This document shows positions 19,334 to 45,464 of a stretch of DNA of 45,464 bases, in pieces. The notes under the pieces were generated by a model that was not told the DNA's origin, did not search any database, and was given only the letters and a program-made list of their open reading frames with translations. Position numbers and translations under genes: made by a program. Positions within the stretch are counted from its first letter, which is position 1; every line of letters begins with the position of its first letter. This DNA comes from a virus, in IMG/VR virus record IMGVR_UViG_3300006143_000028; one strand, given 5' to 3'.

Positions 19334-20065
19334 TTACATGGGCTGGCCGGTGATGGGATTGACGCCGCTGGCGGTGCTCCAGGGCGGCGTGGCAGCGGCA
19401 GGGCCGGGAGCGGGGGGCTGGTAAGCCGGGGCCGCAGGGGCGGCGGGGTTGACGCCGTAGGCCGGAGCCGTGGGAGCAGTAGGGTTGACGCCATAGGCCG
19501 GAGCCGCAGGGGCGGCACCCACACCGGCAAAGTCCACGGAGGCGGAGGCACCGCCAGCCAGGGCCTCACCGTCACGGGTTTTCATGACATTGCCCAGGCC
19601 GCAGCCGATGCCCTTATTGCCGCTGTTGGAGTAGCCGAAAAAGCGGATGGTGACACGGGCATACATCCCGCTGTAAATGTCAGCGGGGGACAGCTCACAG
19701 TTGATGTTGTCGATGCCCACCACCTGGGGCTTGTTCTTGGTGGAGGCGGTCATGACCCAGTGACCCTTGCACTCATCGCCAAAGGGCACCCCGGACTTGC
19801 GCACGCCGTCACCGTCCCAGATGGGCACGGAAAGCTGGGGCGGGCGGGCCCCGTTCCACACCTTGGACAGCGCCTCATTGGCGGCGGCCTGGATGGCGGC
19901 GTCAATGTCCGCCTTGGTGGCCACGTCTGTCTTGGGGATGAGCAGGGTGACGCTGTACTTGGGCTCCCCGCCCTGCTGGGCGGCCCTGGGGGTGGTCAGG
20001 TTGCAGTAGGACAGGCGGACCTCGCCGGTCAGCACTTTCATGGGGTCGTTCTGATACATAGTCAA
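19334..20065 (-). CDS. ssDNA-binding protein (DUF2815-like) with a Pro/Ala-rich repetitive tail
   Basis: N-terminus VLTGEVRLSYCNL...PKYSVTLLIPK. It occupies the conserved position between the DUF2800-like nuclease and the DNA polymerase. The C-terminus has a 12-aa repeat, YGVNPxAPxAPA. Confidence 0.6.
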   Translation of the reverse strand: MTMYQNDPMKVLTGEVRLSYCNLTTPRAAQQGGEPKYSVTLLIPKTDVATKADIDAAIQAAANEALSKVWNGARPPQLSVPIWDGDGVRKSGVPFGDECKGHWVMTASTKNKPQVVGIDNINCELSPADIYSGMYARVTIRFFGYSNSGNKGIGCGLGNVMKTRDGEALAGGASASVDFAGVGAAPAAPAYGVNPTAPTAPAYGVNPAAPAAPAYQPPAPGPAAATPPWSTASGVNPITGQPM

Positions 20066-22367: not shown

Positions 22368-23033
22368 TCAGTCCTCCAAAATGCTTGTCCAATGTTCAAG
22401 GGCGGTCATGACCTTGCGGGTGTAGTCCGTTTGATAGACGCCAGCATCCCAGAGCTTTCTTGCGCCGGTGGGGCCGTTGTTATAGGCCATCAGGGCTTGC
22501 TCTGTGTCCCCGTAGCGCTCAAGATAACCGCCGATGATGTAGACACCGGCCTCAATGTTTCCGGCATAGGTCAACGGGTCCATGCCAAGGCCCTGGAGCC
22601 ATTCGTGGTTTACTTGGTTTATCTGCATGAGGCCATAATCATGGGTGGGGCTCACGGCGTCCGGGTCAAAGTGGGTTTCCACCTCAGCGATGGCCAGCGC
22701 CAGGGCATAGGGCACGCCGTAGGTCTCACACTGGTCCTGCATGAGCTCCTGGAGGTCATAGGCCAGGAGCCGCCCGTCACTCACGATGTCATCCCGATGC
22801 CTCACCGGCTCCGGCGTTTCAGCCGGAGCGGTGGAGGCGCTGGTGGGCTCCTGGGACGGGGTGACCGTGGCCACCGGGGGCTTGTCCTCCAGCAGAGCGT
22901 CAAAAATAAAGTTTAAGGTGAGGGCGGAGACTGTGAGGCCCAGCGCAATGGCCAGCACGATGGAGGCAAGGACCAGCGCCACGGGCCGGAGGTCACGCTT
23001 GGCCAGGCGGCGGGGACGGTAGGCGGCCATCAT
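22368..23033 (-). CDS. Membrane-anchored lytic transglycosylase (SLT domain)
   Basis: N-terminal TM segment VALVLASIVLAIALGLTVSAL. SLT motifs AIAEVETHF, GLMQIN and AYNNG. Confidence 0.8.
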   Translation of the reverse strand: MMAAYRPRRLAKRDLRPVALVLASIVLAIALGLTVSALTLNFIFDALLEDKPPVATVTPSQEPTSASTAPAETPEPVRHRDDIVSDGRLLAYDLQELMQDQCETYGVPYALALAIAEVETHFDPDAVSPTHDYGLMQINQVNHEWLQGLGMDPLTYAGNIEAGVYIIGGYLERYGDTEQALMAYNNGPTGARKLWDAGVYQTDYTRKVMTALEHWTSILED

Positions 23034-23854
23034 GTATTCATCCGGCGGTTGACCTCCGCCACCAGCTCATTGGTGCTGTACTGCTCCAGCGGGTTGCTGT
23101 CATCCTCCACCGTGTAATCGGAGGGAATGAGGAAAGCGGGGCGGGACCCGCGGGTGCGGGAGCAGTTGCCGCTGCTGAGGTCGCCACTGGAGTTCAAGCC
23201 AAGGACCCACGTATGGTCATCATCCACGCAGGGCGTGGACCAGGGCGTCACGGACCACTCAAAGGCCTCCTCATCATTCGGGTTGGGCAGGATGCCGTGG
23301 TACTTGCGCAGCTCATCCAGGGTGAGCGGGGCCACCTTGCACTCCACCGTCCCGTACTCCTTGGAGCCGTTGAGGGCGGTGAGGTCCACCGTGCGGGTGA
23401 TGACCTCATCCGGGTGGCCTTGGGTCAAGCCGTCCAAGTAGACGCCGTTGAGGTGGGAGCGGAGGGAGCTGGCGGCAAAGTTGTTGGTATCGCCAAACGC
23501 CCGCTTGACCCACTCCGTGTCCATGAGCAGGGTGCCGTCCTTGCGGTGCTCCAGAACAATGCAGAGCTCCCCACGGTAGGAGATGACCTTGCCGGGGGCG
23601 ATAGCGGAAACAGGGGTTTTCATGTACTTGTCCTCCTTGTAGATGTAAATGGCGGGGCGGGCCTCCCGCTCCACGGTTTTGTTGTTCTCATAGACGGGGC
23701 CGGTGCCGGTCCACTCATAGTCACACTCCGGGCCGATGAGGACGCCGCACAGCTTATGCGTGGCCTCATCATTGGTGGGAGCCCAGACGTGAACGTCCAG
23801 CCGGGTCCCGGTGGCTTTGTGGCGCAGGCCAACGCTCCATTTGTACTCTTTCAT
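23030..23854 (-). CDS. DGR target protein 2 (paralog of the ligand-binding domain of target 1; carries VR2)
   Basis: 274 aa. It shares the ...NxxxxSxLRxxLNG... and ...C-S-x-T-x-GSRPAF architecture with ORF 29768..31585. Its 3' region holds a 64-bp match to the TR. Confidence 0.7.
   Translation of the reverse strand: MKEYKWSVGLRHKATGTRLDVHVWAPTNDEATHKLCGVLIGPECDYEWTGTGPVYENNKTVEREARPAIYIYKEDKYMKTPVSAIAPGKVISYRGELCIVLEHRKDGTLLMDTEWVKRAFGDTNNFAASSLRSHLNGVYLDGLTQGHPDEVITRTVDLTALNGSKEYGTVECKVAPLTLDELRKYHGILPNPNDEEAFEWSVTPWSTPCVDDDHTWVLGLNSSGDLSSGNCSRTRGSRPAFLIPSDYTVEDDSNPLEQYSTNELVAEVNRRMNT
23135..23198 (-). repeat. DGR variable region VR2
   Basis: 64 bp align without gaps to TR 32834-32897. All 10 mismatches fall at TR adenines on the coding strand. 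It has the same GC-rich 3' end, GGGTCCCGCCCCGCT. Confidence 0.75.
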
Positions 23855-23857
23855 GGA

Positions 23858-24058
23858 TTAGTCATCCTCCGTTTCAATGGTGATGATGTTCTCAGCCTGG
23901 ACGATGATGTCCGACACGATTTGACGGATGGGCAGGCCGGTCTTGGCCTTGAGGCGGCGGACTACTTTCTCCGCCTCCGGGGTGAGGCGGACCGTGCCGA
24001 TGCACTCCATACCCCGCCCACCCGCTTTGAGCACAATGGCGTTTTCGCTTTTGCTCAT
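23858..24058 (-). CDS. Hypothetical protein
   Basis: 66-aa ORF in the early operon. Confidence 0.5.
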   Translation of the reverse strand: MSKSENAIVLKAGGRGMECIGTVRLTPEAEKVVRRLKAKTGLPIRQIVSDIIVQAENIITIETEDD

Positions 24059-24107
24059 AGGGTTGTCCTCCTTGGTTTTTTGGGCTTGTGTGGTGCGGGT
24101 CTATGCC

Positions 24108-24362
24108 TCATCGGCAGCTCTGCGTTCCCCTCCGCTCAAGCTCCTGCTGCATAGTGAGCTGGGCCCGTGCGGCGTCATACTTGAGGCGCTGGTCCGGGAG
24201 CCTGTCCCCGGTGCGGCCCCGCCGCAGTTCGGTGTAAACCGTGGAGAGAGGCACCTTTAAGGCCGCCGCCAGGTCCTTGGCGGTGTTGCCCTGTTCCCAC
24301 AGGGTTTGGAGGTCTTTCCGGGCTTGGAGCGTGCGGAAAGCGTAGCCTGCCATGCGTTTCAC
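24108..24362 (-). CDS. HTH DNA-binding protein (resembles the N-terminal HTH of IS30-type transposases)
   Basis: LQTLWEQGNTAKDLAAALKVPLSTVYTELRRGR parallels LERMLRKGFSKPAIAEALGKCERSIYYEIGRG of the adjacent transposase. Confidence 0.55.
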   Translation of the reverse strand: MKRMAGYAFRTLQARKDLQTLWEQGNTAKDLAAALKVPLSTVYTELRRGRTGDRLPDQRLKYDAARAQLTMQQELERRGTQSCR

Positions 24363-24376
24363 CTCTTTTCTGGCAT

Positions 24377-24418
24377 AAAAAAAATGATTTGCTGGCCCCT
24401 TTTGGGTGCCTGCAAATC
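24377..24418 (-). terminator. Rho-independent terminator between the transposase region and the early operon
   Basis: Minus strand reads GATTTGCAGGCACCC-AAAA-GGGGCCAGCAAATC, followed by A then T8. Confidence 0.6.
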
Positions 24419-24594
24419 AAGTATGAGGGTTGCCTCCCCTAAAAGTCAAGAGAAATTTGCAAAAGACAAGAAAGAATAGCACCTTGCATAAGTGAGGCGG
24501 GCATATTTTATGCGTTTTCACAACAAAATGACATGACAAGCCAGCCGGATGGGTCAATCCCATTCGGCTGGTACGCTTATATAGGACCGGGGCG

Positions 24595-25635
24595 TTACGC
24601 CGCCTGGAGCTCCTGGTCAAAGAGCATGGTGGCGGACTTCCAGCCCAGTATCTTGCGGGGGTAGTTGTTGACCCACCGCTCCGCTGCCATCACCTCCTCC
24701 TTTGTGACCTCATCAAAGTTGGTGCCTTTGGGGAAAAACCGTCTAATCAGCCGGTTCATGTTCTCATTGCTGCCCCGCTCATAGGCGCTGTACGGGTGGC
24801 AGAAAAACACAATAGTCCGCTTGCCCTTGCGCCGGTGGGACATCTCTATGCCCTCGAAGTCTTGAAACTCACAGCCGTTGTCAACGGTGATGCTCTTAAA
24901 AAGTTTATAGAACAGTTTACCAAAGCGCCGCTCCAGGCTATTGATGGCCTTGACCACGCTGGCCGCCGTGTGGTCCTCCACCAGCAGGACAATCCCCATG
25001 CGGGTCCTCCGCTCTGTCAGCACCAGGAGGGCTTGCTTGGAGCCCTTGCACCCCATAACGCTGTCCATCTCCCAGTGCCCAAAACTGCCCCGGCTCTTGA
25101 CCTCCTCCGGGCGCTTTTCGATGCTCTGGCCACGGGGAGCCCTGGCCGCCTCCTTTTTGCTCTTGGCGGCGTAGTGGCGGCGGCCTTTGTCATGCAGGTG
25201 CTCCGGGGTCAGAAAGAGGAACACGTCCCCACGGTAGATGTAATTATAGACCGTATTCTCACAGATTTCCGTGTCAAAATGCTCTCCGTTGTTTCGGATT
25301 TCCGCAAGGGCGGCACCAGGGGCAAAGCCTTGGACCATGATGAGCTCCTCCAGCCGTTGGACCAGGGCGTGGTCATGGCCGATTTTGAGCTCCTTGCCCT
25401 TTTCCTTGAGGAAAGCCTTGTATTTGCGGTGTGCCACGTCCGCACAATAGACCTCAACGTCAATGAGGTCCGTGGTGCGCTGGACGCACAGGCCCCGGCC
25501 TATTTCATAGTAGATAGACCGTTCACACTTGCCCAGGGCCTCCGCAATAGCGGGCTTTGAAAAGCCTTTTCTCAGCATCCGCTCCAGGGTCTGCCGGTCA
25601 TTGAGTGTGAAATGGGTGGCTCCTTTGTGGTTCAT
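24595..25635 (-). CDS. IS30-family DDE transposase
   Basis: 346 aa with an N-terminal HTH. The catalytic region includes GHWEMD, ITVDNGCEF and HPYSAYERGSNENMNRLIRRFFPKGTNF. Confidence 0.9.
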   Translation of the reverse strand: MNHKGATHFTLNDRQTLERMLRKGFSKPAIAEALGKCERSIYYEIGRGLCVQRTTDLIDVEVYCADVAHRKYKAFLKEKGKELKIGHDHALVQRLEELIMVQGFAPGAALAEIRNNGEHFDTEICENTVYNYIYRGDVFLFLTPEHLHDKGRRHYAAKSKKEAARAPRGQSIEKRPEEVKSRGSFGHWEMDSVMGCKGSKQALLVLTERRTRMGIVLLVEDHTAASVVKAINSLERRFGKLFYKLFKSITVDNGCEFQDFEGIEMSHRRKGKRTIVFFCHPYSAYERGSNENMNRLIRRFFPKGTNFDEVTKEEVMAAERWVNNYPRKILGWKSATMLFDQELQAA

Positions 25636-25650
25636 TTATAGCACCTCCAG

Positions 25651-25683
25651 AAAATAAGAAAAGCGGGGCTGTTCACCCCGCTT
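25651..25683 (-). terminator. Rho-independent terminator of the XRE gene (the stop codon lies in the loop)
   Basis: Minus strand reads AAGCGGGG-TGAACAG-CCCCGCTT, followed by TTCTTATTTT. Confidence 0.6.
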
Positions 25684-25918
25684 GCTCTGCTGTGTATAGC
25701 CTCAATAGCTCCGTTGTTTCTCCGTCTGGCAGGATGTCCTCTAAAGAACACTGGAGCGCCCTGCACAGCTTGAGCAGCGTGGCCAGCTTGGCACCACTCA
25801 GGTCCCTCACGCCTTGCTCATAGTGCTGGAGCATTTGGAGGTTGATGCCAGCGGCCTTGGCTAATTGTGACTGTGACAGGTCATGTGCAAGGCGGGCTGT
25901 TTTTAGTCTGCTGTCCAC
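25673..25918 (-). CDS. XRE-family HTH regulator (Cro/CI-type)
   Basis: 81 aa with LSQSQLAKAAGINLQMLQHYEQG. GTG start with RBS AAAGGAGG. Confidence 0.8.
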   Translation of the reverse strand: MDSRLKTARLAHDLSQSQLAKAAGINLQMLQHYEQGVRDLSGAKLATLLKLCRALQCSLEDILPDGETTELLRLYTAEQAG

Positions 25919-26379: not shown

Positions 26380-26408
26380 TTGACAGCACGGCAGAGGCCA
26401 GATATAAT
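26380..26408 (+). promoter_or_regulatory. Consensus sigma70 promoter TTGACA-N17-TATAAT driving the only plus-strand gene
   Basis: The sequence reads TTGACAGCACGGCAGAGGCCAGATATAAT, 58 nt upstream of the ATG at 26466. Confidence 0.7.
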
Positions 26409-26465: not shown

Positions 26466-27152
26466 ATGCCAAATAATGAGCCCAAAAAGCGCCGGGGGTG
26501 CCTCATCCCGCTGGCCATCTTTGCCGTTGTCCTCATTGCTATCATCGGCGGGATAGCGGCAGGGGTCAGCGGCACGGCAGGGCAAAAGCCCAAAAGCCTG
26601 CTGGCGGAAACAATAGGGCTGACAGAACAGCAGGAGCGGGATTTGCTTGAGGTGTTTGACGCTTGCGGCGTTCTGGAGGTCAAAGAGGTCACCCAGTTCA
26701 AAGAGGGGGAAAGCCAAACCTCCTACCATGTCAGGGACGTGGAAACGGACCACTACCGGGGCATGGACGGGACCATCGTGGTGTGGCTGGACAACGGTAC
26801 AAAGGCCGTTGAGGCCATTTACTTTGATGACCAGGACATCTATGTGGACGGGGCCGTGGTGGCCCAGGTGCCCAGCTTTTATGTGTCCTCTGCCCAGTGT
26901 GATGAGTACCGGGTCAGCGTCCAGCTCTTGGTCAAGGAGTGCCTGAGCCACCCGGACAGTGCCCAGTTTGGCAGCGCATCCAAGTGGGCCTTTGGGGTCA
27001 ATGAGGACGGCTATGATGTGATACAATCCAGCGTAACAGCCCAAAACGCCATGGGCGTGGAAAGTACGGAAAAATTCCAGGTCTTGATTGATAGGAGCAC
27101 CGGGGAGCCGGTATCTTTGAACATAGGCGGCACGGAATACATCCAGCAGTAA
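26466..27152 (+). CDS. Membrane-anchored protein (moron; candidate superinfection-exclusion or lysogenic-conversion factor)
   Basis: 228 aa with a basic N-terminus and one TM segment (CLIPLAIFAVVLIAIIGGIAAGV), then a predicted extracytoplasmic domain. It has its own promoter, RBS GAGGAGG and terminator. Confidence 0.75.
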   Translation: MPNNEPKKRRGCLIPLAIFAVVLIAIIGGIAAGVSGTAGQKPKSLLAETIGLTEQQERDLLEVFDACGVLEVKEVTQFKEGESQTSYHVRDVETDHYRGMDGTIVVWLDNGTKAVEAIYFDDQDIYVDGAVVAQVPSFYVSSAQCDEYRVSVQLLVKECLSHPDSAQFGSASKWAFGVNEDGYDVIQSSVTAQNAMGVESTEKFQVLIDRSTGEPVSLNIGGTEYIQQ

Positions 27153-29312: not shown

Positions 29313-29771
29313 TTATTCGGTGACCTCATCCCAGCCATAGACGCCGGGCTCCCAGACGTTGCCGTCCACGGTAGAGGTCCAATGCTTGCCTTTGTGGTTC
29401 ACCTTAGCCCCGGCGCTGTATGCGTCATGGGCCCCCAGGGGTTGGCTCCAGGCGGGCCACTCCTCCGCCGGGTCAGAGGTCACCGCCCAGAGGGAGGCGG
29501 CCTTGTCCGGCTCCCACCCCTCCTGGGACGTGTGCTCCTGGACACAGCGGTAAAGGGTGCCGCCATACCGGCGGAGGTTGCCCACGGCGTAGTTGACGCC
29601 GGGCACCCACTCCGCAAAGAGGGTGGACTGTTCGGCAGCGGTCACGGCGTCAATCTGGCCGTTTTCCGCCAGCACCACAAAGGCGATGGCGGCGGCGTCC
29701 TCCCGCTGCTTGGCGTAGAGCTTGGCCGCATTGATGGCCTTGAGGCTGTTGGCCGTAAATTCTACACTCAT
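29313..29771 (-). CDS. Carbohydrate-binding-like protein (two CBM5/12-style Trp-rich repeats)
   Basis: YRCVQEHTSQEGWEPDKAASLW and HWTSTVDGNVWEPGVYGW resemble CBM5/12 repeats. It follows the fibre-like gene. Confidence 0.45.
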   Translation of the reverse strand: MSVEFTANSLKAINAAKLYAKQREDAAAIAFVVLAENGQIDAVTAAEQSTLFAEWVPGVNYAVGNLRRYGGTLYRCVQEHTSQEGWEPDKAASLWAVTSDPAEEWPAWSQPLGAHDAYSAGAKVNHKGKHWTSTVDGNVWEPGVYGWDEVTE

Positions 29772-31585
29772 TCAAAAGCACCTCCGATGCTGGAAATATA
29801 GCCGCCGGTGTCGCTGTTGCCCCGGCTCACATTGAGCTGGAAGTTGAAAGCAAAGCCGTTGGCGGCGGTCTTATTGGTAAAGACGTGATTGGCTCCGCTC
29901 TTGATGTCCGCAGTGGCGTCCTCCCACACAGGGGTGGTGTCCTTGGCGTTGTTGGTGACCAGCACCTGGAGCACGGCGTCAACGGGCAAAGCGCCCACAA
30001 TGTTGAGCACCATGACGGTGATGGCGTCATCCGCCTCCAGGGGCTCCGCCAGAGTGATGCTGGCGCTGGTGACCTTTTTGGCGAAAGTCACGGTATAGGG
30101 GGCGCTGTCCGCCTTGCCGTCATTGGCCACCACCTTGAGGGTGTGGGCCCCGTTGAGGATTTTCTGATAGTTGGCGGCGGTGACGGCCTGGAACGTGTTG
30201 GACTGGCCCAGGGTGGCCGTATAGGACCGCTGGAGCACGTTGTCCAGATACTCCTTGACCGTCACGGTGTCCCCGTCCGCATCGGTCACCTTGTAGGTCA
30301 GGGCAAAGCCCTCATTTTTGGTGCCCAGGTCCGTGCCGGAGGCCGTGTCACTGGTGATGACGGGATAGGCGTTATTGTCCACCGTGCGGGTGTCGCTGGT
30401 GACATAGGCGCTGGTGGCGTTCAGCGTGTCATAGGCCCGGACACGGTAGGCCACCGTATTCCACCCGGCGGTGATGGTGTCCGTAAAGGTCAGGGCGGAG
30501 CCCTTGTAGACCTGGGACCATGCGCCGCCGTTGACGCTCCGCTCCAGCTCATAGCCGCTGAGGTTGTCATCGCTGTCCGTGGCACGGGTCCAGGAGATGG
30601 GCAGGGTGGCCCCGCCCCGGACGGCGGCGGGCACCGTGATGGAGCCGGGGGCGGAGGGGGCCCGGTTGTTGACCACCGTGACATTGCTGCCGGTTTTCCA
30701 GCCGGAGTTAAGGCCCTCTGTGTCATAGGCCTTGACCCGGAACATGACGGAGGCGGTGCCAAAGGCCACGTTGTTGGTGGTGCTCCGGGCGCTGCCCTGA
30801 TAAATTTGGGTCCAGGAGCTGCCGCCGTTGGTGCTCCGCTCCACGATATAGCCCGCAAGGTTGCCCTCGGCGTCCGTGGACGCTCCCCAGCTCACAGTGA
30901 TGTCCGTGCCGCCGTTGATGCTGGTGGGATAGGTAATGCTGGAGGGGACGCCAGGGGCGGTGTTGACGGACACAGAGCCATCATCGCTGACATAGAGGGA
31001 GGAGGGGAGAGTGAAAGCGGGGCGGGACCCGCTGGTGTAGGAGCAGCCGTTGTAGTCGAAGTAGCCACCGGAGCTCAAGCACCAGGCGCCGTTGGTGTTG
31101 TCCGTGTTCGGGGAACGGGTCCACTGGACCACGGCGGAGCCATTCAGCTTTGCGATTTTCAGCAGATTGAGGACCGTGCTGGACAGCGCCGTGCCCTCAG
31201 CGTTCATGTAGGTGTAGGAATAGCCCAGCTCCGTGGCGGACAGCAGGAACACGGACCGCTGCAAGGTGGTCTTGCTGTTGTTCCCGTTGCCGGGAGTGTA
31301 GTAGATTTTGGTGGTGCCCATCGCCGTGCGGATGTTGGCGTCCAGCAGGTTCTTGTAGGTGCCGTTGAGCCAGGTGTCAATGGCGCTGCTGGCGTAGGCG
31401 TTGATGTTGGAGCTGTGCCACTGGCGCTGGTCATAACAGTCCTTGCGGACCACCAGCACCCGCCCGGCTCCGTTCAGCCCGCTTTCATAGTTCTGCTTGG
31501 CAATGTAAAACTCCACCAGCACGCCGTTTTCCTTGAGCTTGATGATGGAGCCCTCTGCCTTGCTGCCAAGGGTGACAGTTGCCAT
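29768..31585 (-). CDS. DGR target protein 1: fibre/receptor-binding-like protein with an N-terminal VR-bearing domain followed by FN3 and Ig-like repeats
   Basis: The ATG at 31585 is preceded by AAAGGAGG and overlaps the RT stop (TAATG). VR1 encodes roughly aa 158-190. FN3-like repeats are present (ITVSWGASTDAEGNLAGYIVERSTNGGSSW; LPISWTRATDSDDNLSGYELERSVNGGAW). Confidence 0.8.
   Translation of the reverse strand: MATVTLGSKAEGSIIKLKENGVLVEFYIAKQNYESGLNGAGRVLVVRKDCYDQRQWHSSNINAYASSAIDTWLNGTYKNLLDANIRTAMGTTKIYYTPGNGNNSKTTLQRSVFLLSATELGYSYTYMNAEGTALSSTVLNLLKIAKLNGSAVVQWTRSPNTDNTNGAWCLSSGGYFDYNGCSYTSGSRPAFTLPSSLYVSDDGSVSVNTAPGVPSSITYPTSINGGTDITVSWGASTDAEGNLAGYIVERSTNGGSSWTQIYQGSARSTTNNVAFGTASVMFRVKAYDTEGLNSGWKTGSNVTVVNNRAPSAPGSITVPAAVRGGATLPISWTRATDSDDNLSGYELERSVNGGAWSQVYKGSALTFTDTITAGWNTVAYRVRAYDTLNATSAYVTSDTRTVDNNAYPVITSDTASGTDLGTKNEGFALTYKVTDADGDTVTVKEYLDNVLQRSYTATLGQSNTFQAVTAANYQKILNGAHTLKVVANDGKADSAPYTVTFAKKVTSASITLAEPLEADDAITVMVLNIVGALPVDAVLQVLVTNNAKDTTPVWEDATADIKSGANHVFTNKTAANGFAFNFQLNVSRGNSDTGGYISSIGGAFE
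31016..31115 (-). repeat. DGR variable region VR1
   Basis: 100 bp align without gaps to TR 32834-32933 with 15 mismatches. Fourteen fall at TR adenines on the coding strand; one is a C-to-T change (TR 32878). Confidence 0.85.
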
Positions 31586-32610
31586 TAGATGACCTCCTTT
31601 AGAATGTTTTGCACACGGTCCCGCACTTGCTGGCGCAGGAGCCAGGTGTTGCCGTGAGAGGCGTGGGCGTCCCACGCCTGCCAAGATTGCAGGATTTGCT
31701 CACGGGTGACCTGCCCCGTGGGGTATTCCCGCTCCCACCTATGGAGCTTGGAGCGCATCCGTTTGACGCTGCTGTGCCGCAGCTTGCGGATGACCTTGCC
31801 GCTGTCCGTGAGGTAGGTGTGAAAGCCCAAAAAGTCAATCCCGTTGCGGAGCGGGAAAATCTGGGTTTTCTCGTTGAGCTCCAGGCCCAGGCTGGCCATA
31901 TACGCTTTGATTTCCCGGAGGCAAAACTGCAAATATTCCTTGTCCGGGCAGATGAGGAAAAAGTCATCCATGTAACGGCCATACCAGCGGATGTGGAGCA
32001 CTTCCTTGACGAAGTGGTCAAAATCATCCAGGAATAGCAGGGCAAAGAGCTGGCTTGTCTGATAGCCCAGGGGCAAGCCGTCTGAGCAGTCGATGTAAGT
32101 ACAGAGCAGGTCATAAACAATAGGCTCAAGGTCCAGCTTTTTCAGCTTTTCCTTGAGCCTGTCGTGGTCTATACTTGCAAAGAATTTGCGCACATCACAC
32201 TTGAGGACCCAGCCCTTCGCCGTGTGGTATTTGTTCCAGTATTCAGTGAAAAAGCCTTTGAGGCGGTCCAGGCCGAAGTGGAGGCCTTTGCCCTTTTGGG
32301 ATGCGTAGTTATCTAAAATAAAGCTGTGCGTGATGCGGTCATAGAGCAGGTTGTCCACAAGGGCGTGTTGGACCACCTTGTCCACAAATGCCGGAGCCTG
32401 CACCAGTCTTTTCTTGGGCTCAAACACATAGAACACACGGAAACGCCCCGGCCTATATACTTTCGTGCGGAGGATATAGACAAGGTTGATGATGTTCTCC
32501 AGCAGGTGGGCCTCATAGTGGGCGGTGGCCGCTCTGGAGCGCTTGCCCCTCCGTGCGGCCAGATAAGCGACATAGAGCACCGCAAAGGTGCAGATGTCGG
32601 AAAAACTCAT
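31585..32610 (-). CDS. DGR-type reverse transcriptase
   Basis: Motifs FASIDHDRL, LPLGYQTSQLFA ([I/L]GxxxSQ) and RYMDDFFLI (YxDD). The ATG at 32610 is preceded by CAGGAGG. The longer ORF-track N-terminus is Arg/Pro-rich and unlikely to be translated. Confidence 0.9.
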   Translation of the reverse strand: MSFSDICTFAVLYVAYLAARRGKRSRAATAHYEAHLLENIINLVYILRTKVYRPGRFRVFYVFEPKKRLVQAPAFVDKVVQHALVDNLLYDRITHSFILDNYASQKGKGLHFGLDRLKGFFTEYWNKYHTAKGWVLKCDVRKFFASIDHDRLKEKLKKLDLEPIVYDLLCTYIDCSDGLPLGYQTSQLFALLFLDDFDHFVKEVLHIRWYGRYMDDFFLICPDKEYLQFCLREIKAYMASLGLELNEKTQIFPLRNGIDFLGFHTYLTDSGKVIRKLRHSSVKRMRSKLHRWEREYPTGQVTREQILQSWQAWDAHASHGNTWLLRQQVRDRVQNILKEVI

Positions 32611-32833
32611 GCGGGTGGCCTCCTGTCTTTGTACGGCTGGCCATCCTCTCCTTATGCGCCGTTTAGGTGCCGGGGTGACAGGACCAGCAGCCCCCGCCCG
32701 TTTCTTGCCGGGCGGGCGGCATCGGCGCAATGTGTTTGCCTTGAAAAGCTCAAGGCTGGATGTGACCTCCTTTGATGTGATGGATGGCGCTGCTTTCGGC
32801 TTTGGGCCTACTCAGTCCGGCCTTGACCATCAG

Positions 32834-32933
32834 AGCGGGGCGGGACCCGTTGGTGTTGGAGCAGTTGTTGTTGTTGAGGTTGCCATTGGAGTTCAAGTAC
32901 CAGGCGTTGTTGGTGTTGTTCGTGTTCGGGGAA
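32834..32933 (-). repeat. DGR template repeat (TR), transcribed as non-coding RNA
   Basis: The adenine-rich copy (13 AAC and 1 AAT codon-equivalents) of the VR sequence. It lies 223 nt upstream of the RT start and 56 nt downstream of the avd-like gene. Confidence 0.85.
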
Positions 32934-32989: not shown

Positions 32990-33538
32990 TTAGGGGCTTT
33001 TGAGGGCCGCCGCAATCTGTTGGGCCATCTGTCCCATCACCGCAAGCTCCTGGGCGGCCTTGGCCTCCCGTAAAGCTGCCGCTCTGTTGCCGTCACTCTT
33101 TCGCCAGTTAAAGGCCTTTTGCCGGACAGGACGGACAAGCTCCGCCCAATAATGGCATTGGTCAGCGGTGATGTACTTTTTCTTAAAGCTGAGGTTGATA
33201 TACTGGAGCATGGTGTCACACTTGACCAGCACCCGGTCCAGGTCTTTCAGCCGCTCCTCATACTCAGTTTCAAAGAAACGGCCATCTGCGGAGATGCACA
33301 GTTCCAAAATGTCATTGGCGCAGTTGGCCAGCCGGTCACACAGCCGGAAAGTCTGGCTCTTGGGGAAATGGGGCTTGCCGTCATCCTTGAGCTTTTCGTA
33401 AAGCACCCGCTCCACAAGCTGGCCGTTTTCCATGACATAGCCCTGGACCCTCTTGTATTCCGCCTCCTTGGCCTTGACCCGCTGGTTGGTGTATTCCACC
33501 AGGTCCAGCGCCAGAGGGATGACGTCATAATTTGGCAT
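32990..33538 (-). CDS. avd: Accessory variability determinant (Avd)-like helical-bundle protein
   Basis: It sits directly upstream of the TR. It is basic and predicted helical, with FPKSQTFRLCDRLANCANDILELCISA resembling the Avd / 23S-IVS four-helix-bundle pattern. At 182 aa it is longer than canonical Avd. Confidence 0.5.
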   Translation of the reverse strand: MPNYDVIPLALDLVEYTNQRVKAKEAEYKRVQGYVMENGQLVERVLYEKLKDDGKPHFPKSQTFRLCDRLANCANDILELCISADGRFFETEYEERLKDLDRVLVKCDTMLQYINLSFKKKYITADQCHYWAELVRPVRQKAFNWRKSDGNRAAALREAKAAQELAVMGQMAQQIAAALKSP

Positions 33539-33540
33539 GG

Positions 33541-34278
33541 CTAAAACTCCACCCTTTGGTAAGTTTCATTCCACACGCCGGTCACCACCAGCCCGGTGAG
33601 GGCGGCAAAGGTCACGGTGAAAGAGTTGCCGGTGATGTTGGTGCCGTATTTCAGCTCCAGGACAGCCAGGCGGGCGTCAATGCCTCCCACCGTGTTCTGG
33701 AGTTCCGGGTGCACATCGGCAGCGTTGTCATGGGTTTCCACGGCGTCCGTGATGGCCTGCCGGATGTCCTCATGGGCGGCGGGGTCCGTGTTGTGCTCAG
33801 AAATAGCCCGCTCCAGGTCCTCCCGGCTCACCACGTCCAGGGCCGGAATGATGGTAAACTCCAGCACGGAGGCGTCCGCCACCACAATGTGCATGACCAT
33901 TGTGAGCCGTCCATCCACGCCGATGGAGATGGCCACCTTTTCCGTGTCCGGGGTGTTGCAGATAGCGATGAGCTCACCGGCCTCACTGAAAAGCCCCATC
34001 TCACGGCAGACGAAGTTGCCCACGCTGTCATCAATGACGATTTTGACATCCAGCATATTGGGCACTGTGGGGTTTTGAACGGCGGACACGATGGGCCCCC
34101 GCCACAGCTCCCCCACCAGGCTTGTTTGGTCCACCGTGGGCACATAGTAGCCCCCGCCGCCGTCACCGGCAGCGGCCTGGGTGATTTTCAGCTTTGTGCC
34201 CGCCAGGATGCAGGCGGTGATGCGGGCGGCCCCCAGGGTGGTGATTTTTGTGCCGTATCGTTTCTCTTGCTCAGGCAT
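33541..34278 (-). CDS. Tail fibre protein with N-terminal tail-collar domain (DUF3751-like)
   Basis: ITTLGAARITACILAGTKLKITQAAAGDGGG...REMGLFSEAGELIAI. The ATG at 34278 is preceded by AAGGAGGA. Confidence 0.7.
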   Translation of the reverse strand: MPEQEKRYGTKITTLGAARITACILAGTKLKITQAAAGDGGGGYYVPTVDQTSLVGELWRGPIVSAVQNPTVPNMLDVKIVIDDSVGNFVCREMGLFSEAGELIAICNTPDTEKVAISIGVDGRLTMVMHIVVADASVLEFTIIPALDVVSREDLERAISEHNTDPAAHEDIRQAITDAVETHDNAADVHPELQNTVGGIDARLAVLELKYGTNITGNSFTVTFAALTGLVVTGVWNETYQRVEF

Positions 34279-34909
34279 TTTCTTGGTCCTCCTTGTATGG
34301 GTAGATTTCAACGGTAGCGTGATACTCAAGCGGCCCGGCCATCTTGACGCCGCCGGCGCTTTCCAGCTCATTGACAAGCATGGGCCACACGTCCATATAG
34401 ACAGACCGCTCTGTCATGGCCCCCATCTGGATGGTGCCCTCCGATTGCACAAAGGAAATGATGAGCACCCACATATTAGAGGGCCGGACCGCCAGCAGCA
34501 GGTCCATGACCTCTGCCGCTATGCGGTCAGCGTCCGGCAGGATGGTATAGTCAAGCTGGATGTGGATGGAGTAGTCCACAATGGCCACCTCATAGCCCTG
34601 GGGCCCGCACAGGCCTTGGAGCCAGTTCTTGAGCCAGGGAACGGTGTAGGGCAGTTCACGGTTCCACATCGCTTTGACACGGGCTTTGCGGACCGCCAGG
34701 GTGTCCGTGTCCTTGGGGCGGATTTTCAGCTCCTGCTCCCACACGGACACCCCCCGCTCATCGGCGTCATCCAGGAATTGATTGGCCATCACCCGGTCAA
34801 GGCCGTCCCACGCAAGGGAGATTTCCGGCTCGTTGGCGTTGTTGATGGCCTTAAATTCTGTTACCTCCCGCAGCACCGGGGGCAGGTAGTTGATGAGCTT
34901 TCTATCCAC
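34271..34909 (-). CDS. Baseplate/tail protein, XkdU / DUF2313-like
   Basis: N-terminus LINYLPPVLREVTEFKAINNANEPE. It lies downstream of the baseplate J gene. Confidence 0.6.
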   Translation of the reverse strand: MDRKLINYLPPVLREVTEFKAINNANEPEISLAWDGLDRVMANQFLDDADERGVSVWEQELKIRPKDTDTLAVRKARVKAMWNRELPYTVPWLKNWLQGLCGPQGYEVAIVDYSIHIQLDYTILPDADRIAAEVMDLLLAVRPSNMWVLIISFVQSEGTIQMGAMTERSVYMDVWPMLVNELESAGGVKMAGPLEYHATVEIYPYKEDQENA

Positions 34910-45060: not shown

Positions 45061-45431
45061 TAGGCCCACCCCTCCCACAGCTCAAGCGGCACCTCCTGGT
45101 GGACGGTGTAGACCGCCGGGGTGCCGCTCCGCTCATAGTCACGGGTGACCTTGTTCTGGGTCACGGTGATTTTTGACCCCTCCGGGATGTCCACGGAGGG
45201 GTCAATGTAGAGCGTAACGGATTGGACCACCTTGGCGGCCTCCTCAGAGGGCTCCGTGGCGGTGACAGTCTTGTGGGAGATGCGGCAGGCCGCCCCCTCC
45301 ACAAGCACCCGCTCAACGGGCTCCGTGCGGCCATTGGCCTCATTCAGCACACCCTCCCGCACGGTGACGGTGGCCTTGCCGGTCCAAAGGCTTTGCACGG
45401 CCTTTTTGTAGGCGGTCAGGTTCTTCACCAT
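45060..45431 (-). CDS. Head closure / head-tail adaptor protein (SPP1 gp16-like)
   Basis: 123 aa. Its position after the connector gene (across the circular junction) and its size fit this family. Confidence 0.6.
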   Translation of the reverse strand: MVKNLTAYKKAVQSLWTGKATVTVREGVLNEANGRTEPVERVLVEGAACRISHKTVTATEPSEEAAKVVQSVTLYIDPSVDIPEGSKITVTQNKVTRDYERSGTPAVYTVHQEVPLELWEGWA

Positions 45432-45464
45432 CTCAACCTCCTAAACGCCCCCAGGATTTTCTCC
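45388..45464. repeat. Terminal direct overlap, copy 2 (identical to 1-77)
   Basis: Direct comparison of the two ends. Confidence 0.9.

Follow-up and report, generated by a model that had tools for sequence, protein, structure and literature searches.

Does a short match to the template of a diversity-generating retroelement (DGR), far from the retroelement itself, mark a second active target, and what might the diversified protein be for? This question is raised by a gene in the IMG/VR virus record IMGVR_UViG_3300006143_000028, a stretch of 45,464 nucleotides that we analyzed as a whole and refer to below as the window. A previous sequence-only reading of the window had proposed that one template repeat (TR) serves two variable repeats, VR1 next to the retroelement and a remote VR2 in an early-region gene, and that the VR2 gene is paired with a gene for a membrane-anchored lytic transglycosylase. 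The explanation that we arrived at, to which we assign a probability of about 0.8, is that VR2 is an active second target of a single DGR and that its host gene encodes a diversified binder made with the early genes.

The 45.4 kb of the window represent a phage genome that has nearly all of its genes on the minus strand. An exact 77-bp direct repeat at its two ends (1-77 and 45388-45464) points, as such repeats usually do, to a circular assembly, which puts the true genome at 45,387 bp. The cognate Avd, TR, and reverse transcriptase (RT) all lie in the same element as VR2, with the genes for Avd and RT on either side of the TR. The Avd accessory protein (32990..33538, minus strand) matches phrog_3206, "Avd protein of DGR" (E = 9e-22), and, weakly, the bAvd Pfam family; the RT open reading frame (ORF; 31585..32730, minus strand) scores 69.5 bits against RVT_1 and matches phrog_1423 at E = 7e-120. 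Judging from the 341-aa ortholog at a related locus (L004), the true RT start probably lies about 40 codons inside this ORF. Directly after RT comes the ORF of target 1, a tentaclin of 606-638 aa (29768-31684), in which an N-terminal DUF6273 domain (86.6 bits) is followed by Hoc-like/Ig-like (immunoglobulin-like) domains (Hoc-like phrog_10993, E = 5e-166). VR1 (31016..31115, minus strand) lies in that DUF6273 domain and is templated by all 100 nt of the TR (32834..32933, minus strand). The two repeats differ at 15 positions, 14 of them among the 32 adenines of the TR, and the single non-adenine mismatch is a C-to-T change at repeat position 55.

VR2 (23135..23198, minus strand) consists of 64 nt that hold nine AAY-derived codons (Y, pyrimidine) and one ACC codon. 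It aligns without a gap to the 3' 64 nt of the TR (32834-32897), and 10 of the 10 mismatches fall on adenines of the TR coding (minus) strand. With 19 adenines in the 64-nt segment, the chance of such a distribution is 6.1e-7. We thereby reproduced the match that had been claimed, down to the listed codon changes (AAT to AGT; AAC to GAC, AGC, AGC, GGC, CGC, and CGC). At its 3' end, VR2 runs into a GC-rich element that resembles an initiation of mutagenic homing (IMH) site, GGGTCCCGCCCCGCT; as had also been noted, this element is identical in TR, VR1, and VR2, after which both VRs continue with TTC and the TR with CTG. The same pattern, a shared 3' element and then divergence between VR and TR, is seen in L004. 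On the other side, homology between VR2 and the TR ends abruptly 5' of CTTG. Folding of the sequences downstream of the VRs gave no BPP-1-like hairpin or cruciform common to both. VR2 is, as proposed, a genuine second target of the same TR, at a distance of 9,699 nt from it in the phage circle.

Whether VR2 is still being diversified is a question for its relatives. For the comparison, forty related loci were taken from IMG/VR and bacterial genomes; their hosts are Oscillospiraceae (Flintibacter, Acutalibacter, Angelakisella, Dysosmobacter, and Pseudoflavonifractor), and relatives occur in Acutalibacter caecimuris, Flintibacter muris, and Angelakisella massiliensis. In the DNA of eight close relatives, 18 of 19 template-adenine columns vary. 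The remainder of the VR varies at 2 of 45 columns and the gene outside it at 9 of 419 (Fisher P = 3e-24). The same concentration of change is evident at the protein level. A search with the VR2 protein gave 1731 homolog clusters, mostly of 194-199 aa, and in an alignment of the best 120 homologs the entropy is 2.2-3.1 bits at nine residues (221, 223, 225, 227-230, 233, and 235). The repertoire at these nine sites (N, S, G, D, Y, H, R, and others) is the one expected from AAY codons, and the residues that flank them (G224, C231, and the GSRPAF motif) are invariant in that alignment. Even within one 90%-identity cluster, which comprises 1238 distinct sequences, fifteen members of 196 aa vary at the nine VR codons (three to seven residues at each) and almost nowhere else.

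To relate each VR2 to its own template, we used the six genomes whose upstream sequence reaches 9.5 kb or more (the window, L004, L029, L037, L040, and L044). Avd, TR, RT, and tentaclin are present upstream in all six, with the cognate TR 8.8-9.7 kb from VR2. Each TR differs from its own VR2 at 6-13 adenines and at no more than one other base (0-1 non-adenine mismatches). Moreover, lineage-specific non-adenine bases are common to a TR and its own VR2 across the six lineages (CTC/ATC/GTC, TCC/ACC, GGGTCC/GGCTCC/GGGTCT, and CGC/CGT). Such concerted change argues for repeated transfer from template to target, and is not predicted by simple paralogy.

These results bear directly on the possibility that VR2 is a fossil, that is, a decayed copy that is no longer homed and that resembles the TR through common ancestry with target 1. 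The sequence-only reading had itself raised this possibility, should relatives prove to lack adenine-restricted variation or should simple paralogy explain the likeness. The shortness of the match compared with VR1 (64 versus 100 nt), its abrupt end, and the distance of the gene from the cassette would all suit a decayed copy. Drift, on the other hand, would not place 18 of 20 variable VR columns on template adenines, would not leave TR and VR2 with identical non-adenine bases in each of six diverged lineages, and would not yield 1238 distinct sequences that differ at nine codons in a single 90%-identity cluster. We hence regard a fossil as a very remote explanation, and on four independent lines of comparison VR2 is very probably an active DGR target. 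At the level of sequence comparison, the adenine-restricted variation, the co-variation of TR and VR2, and the conserved synteny are established for this lineage, and they support the claim that one TR serves two targets of different length (100 and 64 nt). This Oscillospiraceae phage lineage thus provides a clean comparative case of one template with two unequal targets, at a separation of 9.7 kb in the circle and about 36 kb in the prophage, in which the template and its distal target evolve in concert.

How one template might serve both sites can be outlined by analogy with BPP-1, the paradigm that supplies both the cDNA mechanism and the part assigned to the 3' element. The TR (32834-32933) would be transcribed, and RT, together with Avd, would copy it into cDNA with misincorporation opposite adenines. 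The cDNA would then replace either VR, anchored at the common GC-rich element GGGTCCCGCCCCGCT; since past this element the VRs read TTC and the TR reads CTG, transfer would be kept one-way. At VR2, the 5' junction would be resolved within a few bases of CTTG, and only the 3' 64 nt of the template would be used. Nine AAY codons and one ACC codon give about 1.5e11 possible proteins.

The protein that carries VR2 is smaller than the gene first described. The ORF at 23030..23854 (minus strand, 274 aa) exists as reported, but the conserved gene starts at 23623, and the rest is a fused upstream ORF. The core protein, which we call TGT2, is 197 aa long (23030..23623, minus strand), matches phrog_9958 over the whole profile (E = 3e-37), and is preceded by AAGGAGG 8 nt before its ATG at 23623. 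The 77-aa N-terminal extension (23624..23854, minus strand) is a separate 69-aa ORF in many relatives, where it stops at a TAA just before the AAGGAGG-N8-ATG that opens a gene of 194-199 aa. A change from TAA to TAC in the window and a few close relatives has fused the two in frame. The window still has the ATG at 23623 and its ribosome-binding site. From this comparison, the conserved target protein begins at 23623, and the 274-aa ORF is a lineage-specific fusion. The extension has no match in Pfam or PHROG; its fusion hints that the small 69-aa protein works with the DGR target.

TGT2 is a paralog of the tentaclin's N-terminal domain (E = 1e-8), in agreement with the sequence-only reading, and both proteins match phrog_9958. 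Its score against DUF6273 (PF19789) is 17.9 bits, a weak match that falls under the gathering score of 23.5, and many of its close homologs carry a precomputed match to the same family. It is a single domain of 197 aa in which an Ig domain is not present, so the definition of a tentaclin fits the VR1 protein instead. No signal peptide or transmembrane segment is predicted (hydropathy maximum, 0.99), and TGT2 is, by prediction, soluble and cytoplasmic. An NTPase or effector domain is not present, and PADLOC defense models gave no matches among seven proteins of the operon. We also modeled its structure. A first AlphaFold2 (AF2) run, with 28 sequences that were all close relatives, was unusable (predicted local distance difference test, pLDDT, 50.8); a second, with 87 sequences from three subfamilies, gave one model of five at pLDDT 76.9 and four at about 50. 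The best model is built of N-terminal strands, a central domain, and a helix at the C-terminus, and matches viral DUF6273 models in BFVD (E = 4e-7 to 8e-4; template modeling score, 0.5-0.67). The only local likeness found by Foldseek in the PDB covers 40 residues of the eIF5A/EF-P N-terminal barrel, with E above 0.4, and a profile search of PDB sequences with the target gave no match. A C-type-lectin-like fold has been reported for homologs of TGT2 (PMC10743442; bioRxiv 10.1101/2024.10.15.618418), and since we found no match to a solved structure, the assignment of this fold to TGT2 rests on that published work.

The gene directly downstream (22368..23033, minus strand) encodes the membrane-anchored lytic transglycosylase. 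It scores 68.1 bits against the Pfam SLT family (cut-off, 21.3), has the motifs AEVET, GLMQI, and AYNNG, and is laid out as a basic N-terminus, one transmembrane helix, a Pro/Thr-rich linker, and the SLT domain. The helix has a mean hydropathy of 2.59 over residues 18-36, follows a predicted cytoplasmic tail of 16 residues, and is conserved in 36 of 36 homologs. The product is a predicted family-1 lytic transglycosylase with the catalytic Glu motif; NCBIfam gave only weak matches to specialized transglycosylases. As the sequence-only reading had stated, the TGA of the target gene overlaps the ATG of this N-terminally anchored SLT protein as ATGA. The translational coupling that it had seen there carries little weight, because 4-nt stop/start overlaps are found at at least 7 of 62 gene junctions in this genome.

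A survey of relatives for co-occurrence of the two genes, which had been suggested along with the pairing, gave a divided answer. Within the lineage the pair holds: across loci that span 56-100% protein identity, the SLT gene follows the target directly in 39 of 40. The spacing is -4 nt at 16 of these loci, +2 to +4 nt at 21, and between -4 and +11 nt overall, with the exception of one interrupted locus. The pair fails in L036, where the target is kept without SLT, and beyond the lineage, since no SLT gene lies beside the homologous targets in nd4, nd12, FP_Brigit, FP_Toutatis/Lelie, or L046-L048. The pairing is hence not a property of the target family. It could nonetheless be functional in this lineage, with the diversified binder directing or regulating peptidoglycan cleavage, for example in superinfection exclusion or cell-wall remodeling. 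Adjacency over so wide a range of identity and the conserved membrane anchor speak for such a role, as does an early-region 3D-domain protein in FP_Toutatis, 3 kb from the small target of that phage (L051, NC_047915; 7828-8358 and 11505-12152). The last is a loose parallel to SLT; 3D domains have a relative in the lytic transglycosylase MltA. Yet the target has neither signal peptide nor transmembrane segment and the SLT domain lies outside the membrane, which would put the two in different compartments; the locus and the lineages without SLT, and the frequency of stop/start overlaps, count against a functional pair as well. We consider it quite improbable and treat the pairing as lineage-specific synteny. 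From the comparison of loci, SLT is a lineage-specific neighbor and not an obligatory partner, and it offers a testable handle in this lineage rather than a general one.

The arrangement had been thought non-standard for a phage DGR, and here the literature decides otherwise. According to Baykov et al. (2023; PMC10743442), two gut myoviruses, nd4 and nd12, carry a tentaclin with a 5'-proximal VR1 and a small single-domain DUF6273 target with a shorter 3' VR2. Like the window, these phages have one TR between Avd and RT, a VR1 near the 5' end of a DUF6273-Ig-like gene directly after RT, and a shorter VR2 at the 3' end of the gene for a DUF6273 protein that has a single domain, terminal helices, and a length of about 200-290 aa; nd4 also shares the order of DGR, lysis genes, switch, IS30-family transposase, and early genes including tgt2. 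Protein identities between nd4 and the window are 34% for tgt2, 49% for the tentaclin, 40% for RT, and 45% for the transposase. nd4 is nevertheless a different lineage, with an RNase_T exonuclease downstream of the target where the window has SLT, and the window differs from both nd4 and nd12 in its fused 77-aa extension and its own replication module (DUF2800 exonuclease, Enc34-type single-stranded DNA-binding protein, and family A polymerase). The Faecalibacterium phages Lelie and CP11 have a large and a small DUF6273 target with adenine-specific variation at both VRs (PMC11792537), and in Toutatisvirus a core gene holds the second VR, at a distance of 17.5 kb from the TR (bioRxiv 10.1101/2024.10.15.618418). 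These phages share with the window a VR2 far from the TR, in an early-region gene, and adenine-specific variation at both VRs. In Lelie and Toutatis, in contrast, the neighbors are a prohibitin-family protein and ORFs of no assigned function, no SLT gene is adjacent, and identity to the window protein is about 26%. Distal second VRs near counter-defense genes have also been noted in induced gut prophages (PMC12629997), and non-adjacent targets are listed for phage-associated DGRs (PMC5758913). The two-target architecture is thus already published, and this phage adds another lineage to it.

We then compared the surroundings of the small target across lineages. In nd4 its neighbors are an LPD15 protein, an RNase_T exonuclease, and a DNA methylase; in nd12, small ORFs of no assigned function, downstream of an IS30-family gene; in FP_Brigit, helix-turn-helix (HTH) regulators of the switch, an exonuclease, and RecT; and in FP_Toutatis and Lelie, the prohibitin-family protein and unassigned ORFs mentioned above, upstream of antiterminator Q in FP_Toutatis. 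In L046-L048 the neighbors are SbcC-like, hydrolase, and methylase genes, as identified by a scan of the genes upstream in L046, and the target stands directly before Avd-RT. Across all six lineages examined, the small target is found among early or DNA-metabolism genes and never among tail genes.

Several observations on these small targets stand apart from the window. Two distant relatives, L046 (9854-12685) and L047, have two tandem small phrog_9958 targets directly upstream of Avd-RT, and a third, L048, has one. In FP_Brigit, the small early gene AUV56625.1 (L049, MG711465.1; 3948-4559) contains a second VR, which over 50 nt shows seven mismatches to the Brigit TR (L050, ~33690-33770; ~45406-45486 in the record), all at adenines and none elsewhere; the original description of FP_Brigit names only a Hoc-like target (PMC5883640). 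Small DUF6273 targets are extremely abundant in gut metagenomes, and three 90%-identity clusters of small DGR targets (P0283, P0219, and P0067) hold 33,878, 6,693, and 1,238 distinct sequences, respectively. Cluster size could act as a simple screen of protein databases for DGR targets.

What, then, might a diversified protein encoded among early genes do? One comparison is with Mtd of phage BPP-1, the prototype of phage DGR targets, a 381-aa trimeric tail-fiber tip with beta-prism and beta-sandwich domains, encoded directly upstream of its cassette in the tail module. The window resembles that system in having a VR at the C-terminal end of the binding domain, AAY codons, a TR beside RT, and an IMH-like GC-rich 3' element. 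It differs in that its target is a 197-aa protein with none of the Mtd domains, lies 9.7 kb away among early genes, and gave no match to Mtd in Foldseek. As a tentative reading of its function, we suggest that TGT2 is a diversified binder that is made with the early genes and takes part in phage-host conflict or surface interactions, and is not a tail-fiber tip.

One alternative is a virion-borne, Mtd-like receptor-binding protein that docks on the tail or capsid, perhaps through its C-terminal helix. To our knowledge, all experimentally characterized phage DGR targets are receptor-binding proteins (BPP-1 Mtd), and TGT2 is paralogous to the binding domain of the tentaclin. The tail-fiber gene that adjoins Avd (33541-34377) is short (278 aa, with a collar-fiber N-terminal domain only) and could need a distal adaptor. 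A receptor-binding role has also been proposed for nd4_tgt2 and nd12_tgt2 (PMC10743442) and stated again for the small target elsewhere (bioRxiv 10.1101/2024.10.15.618418). This assumption is called into question by the consistent encoding of the small target with early rather than tail genes, which fits it poorly: all six lineages place the gene among early or DNA-metabolism genes and none places it in the tail module, and in FP_Toutatis it precedes antiterminator Q. TGT2 also lacks the beta-prism and beta-sandwich domains by which Mtd is attached, and its model resembled neither Mtd nor any other PDB entry. On balance, a virion-borne role appears rather unlikely to us. A more far-reaching proposal, which we put forward as an unlikely one, is that small DUF6273 targets may be non-virion, early-expressed soluble binders inside the infected or lysogenic cell, acting in counter-defense or superinfection sensing. 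Such an intracellular role would be compatible with the early or DNA-metabolism placement in six lineages, with the lack of an export signal, and with the finding that genomes lacking the DGR still have the small target as a core gene (bioRxiv 10.1101/2024.10.15.618418), and it has been hinted at before (PMC12629997). Cytoplasmic C-lec "antigen sensors" have likewise been proposed among the DGR targets of multicellular bacteria (PMC10907252). Like the binders in these two reports, TGT2 lies among DNA-modification or conflict genes and has no predicted export signal; unlike the bacterial sensors, it has no NTPase or effector domain and no PADLOC match, and its likeness to the prophage cases, which have been noted rather than characterized, is one of placement. 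If the proposal is true, each round of diversification would let progeny phages or lysogens recognize a different host defense protein or competing phage, the small targets would be a phage-side mirror of the antigen sensors proposed for bacterial DGRs, and the adjacent membrane-anchored SLT would be part of the same early conflict module in this lineage. Action inside the cell would give phage DGRs a second role besides tropism switching.

A number of points weigh against the explanation that we favor, of an active second target in a diversified early-gene binder. The exact homology 5' of the first diversified codon of VR2 is about 4 nt, which is short for homology-dependent 5' resolution of the BPP-1 type. 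Diversification of VR2 is known from the comparison of relatives and is probable for this phage's own population, and the timing of target expression is deduced from gene order alone. The VR segment lies below pLDDT 60 in the best AF2 model, which leaves the C-type-lectin fold of TGT2 a putative one, and a Foldseek search of the model against the PDB gave no significant match, Mtd included. Finally, the authors who described homologous small targets favor an Mtd-like receptor-binding role for them (PMC10743442).

The setting of the target gene is consistent with its classification as early. As had been claimed, it lies among regulatory and replication genes rather than tail genes, and it stands third or fourth in an operon that opens with an HTH regulator. 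The common order among the related loci is HTH_38, a 66-aa ORF, the 69-aa ORF (at some loci), target, SLT, phrog_22695, DUF2800 exonuclease, Enc34-type single-stranded DNA-binding protein, and family A DNA polymerase. In the window the operon-opening genes (23858..24362, minus strand) are the HTH_38 regulator (24108-24362) and the 66-aa ORF (23858-24058), and they are upstream of the target in all relatives. Just before the HTH_38 gene lies a weaker promoter-like site (24449-24420, minus strand), followed directly by an inverted repeat, TGATTTGCAGGC...GCCAGCAAATCA, and a run of eight T (24419-24377, minus strand). We considered and rejected the idea that the inverted repeat (24419-24385) represents abutted IS30-type terminal repeats, since relatives carry different hairpins and a T-run at the same place before the HTH_38 gene. 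This variation makes the repeat look like a terminator or operator hairpin, and the site could be an operator, an attenuator, or a terminator.

The same region forms one end of the prophage. At eight loci from bacterial genomes, similarity to the phage ends just upstream of the HTH gene, and in three of the four loci with scanned upstream ORFs the next genes are housekeeping genes of the host (L016, der, DUF512, and yceD; L021, efp; and L013, matE). These host genes place the left end of the prophage at about 24377-24449, where the operon starts. An IS30-family DDE transposase (24595-25635, minus strand; 227 bits against a cut-off of 80) occupies the right end. With the operon at the left end and the transposase at the right, the TR and VR2 would be about 36 kb apart in the prophage. 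The transposase keeps a fixed position in this lineage, in nd4, and in nd12, and because the prophage ends adjoin different host genes (yceD/der, efp, and matE), it probably serves as an integrase of low site specificity. Beyond it are two divergent promoters with perfect TTGACA-17-TATAAT sequences, one on the minus strand (25978-25950) upstream of a Cro-like XRE gene (25673-25918) and one on the plus strand (26380-26408) upstream of an ORF of phrog_26910 (26466-27152). This pair of sigma-70 promoters probably marks the lysogeny switch.

Elsewhere in the window, Rfam and tRNA scans gave no match, and a search of GenBank phages for near-identical DNA found only one partial relative, at 80% identity. 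Two tandem repeats were noted as well: two 51-nt copies at 1688-1789, and three 36-nt copies at 19421-19528, the latter within the gene for the Enc34-type single-stranded DNA-binding protein.

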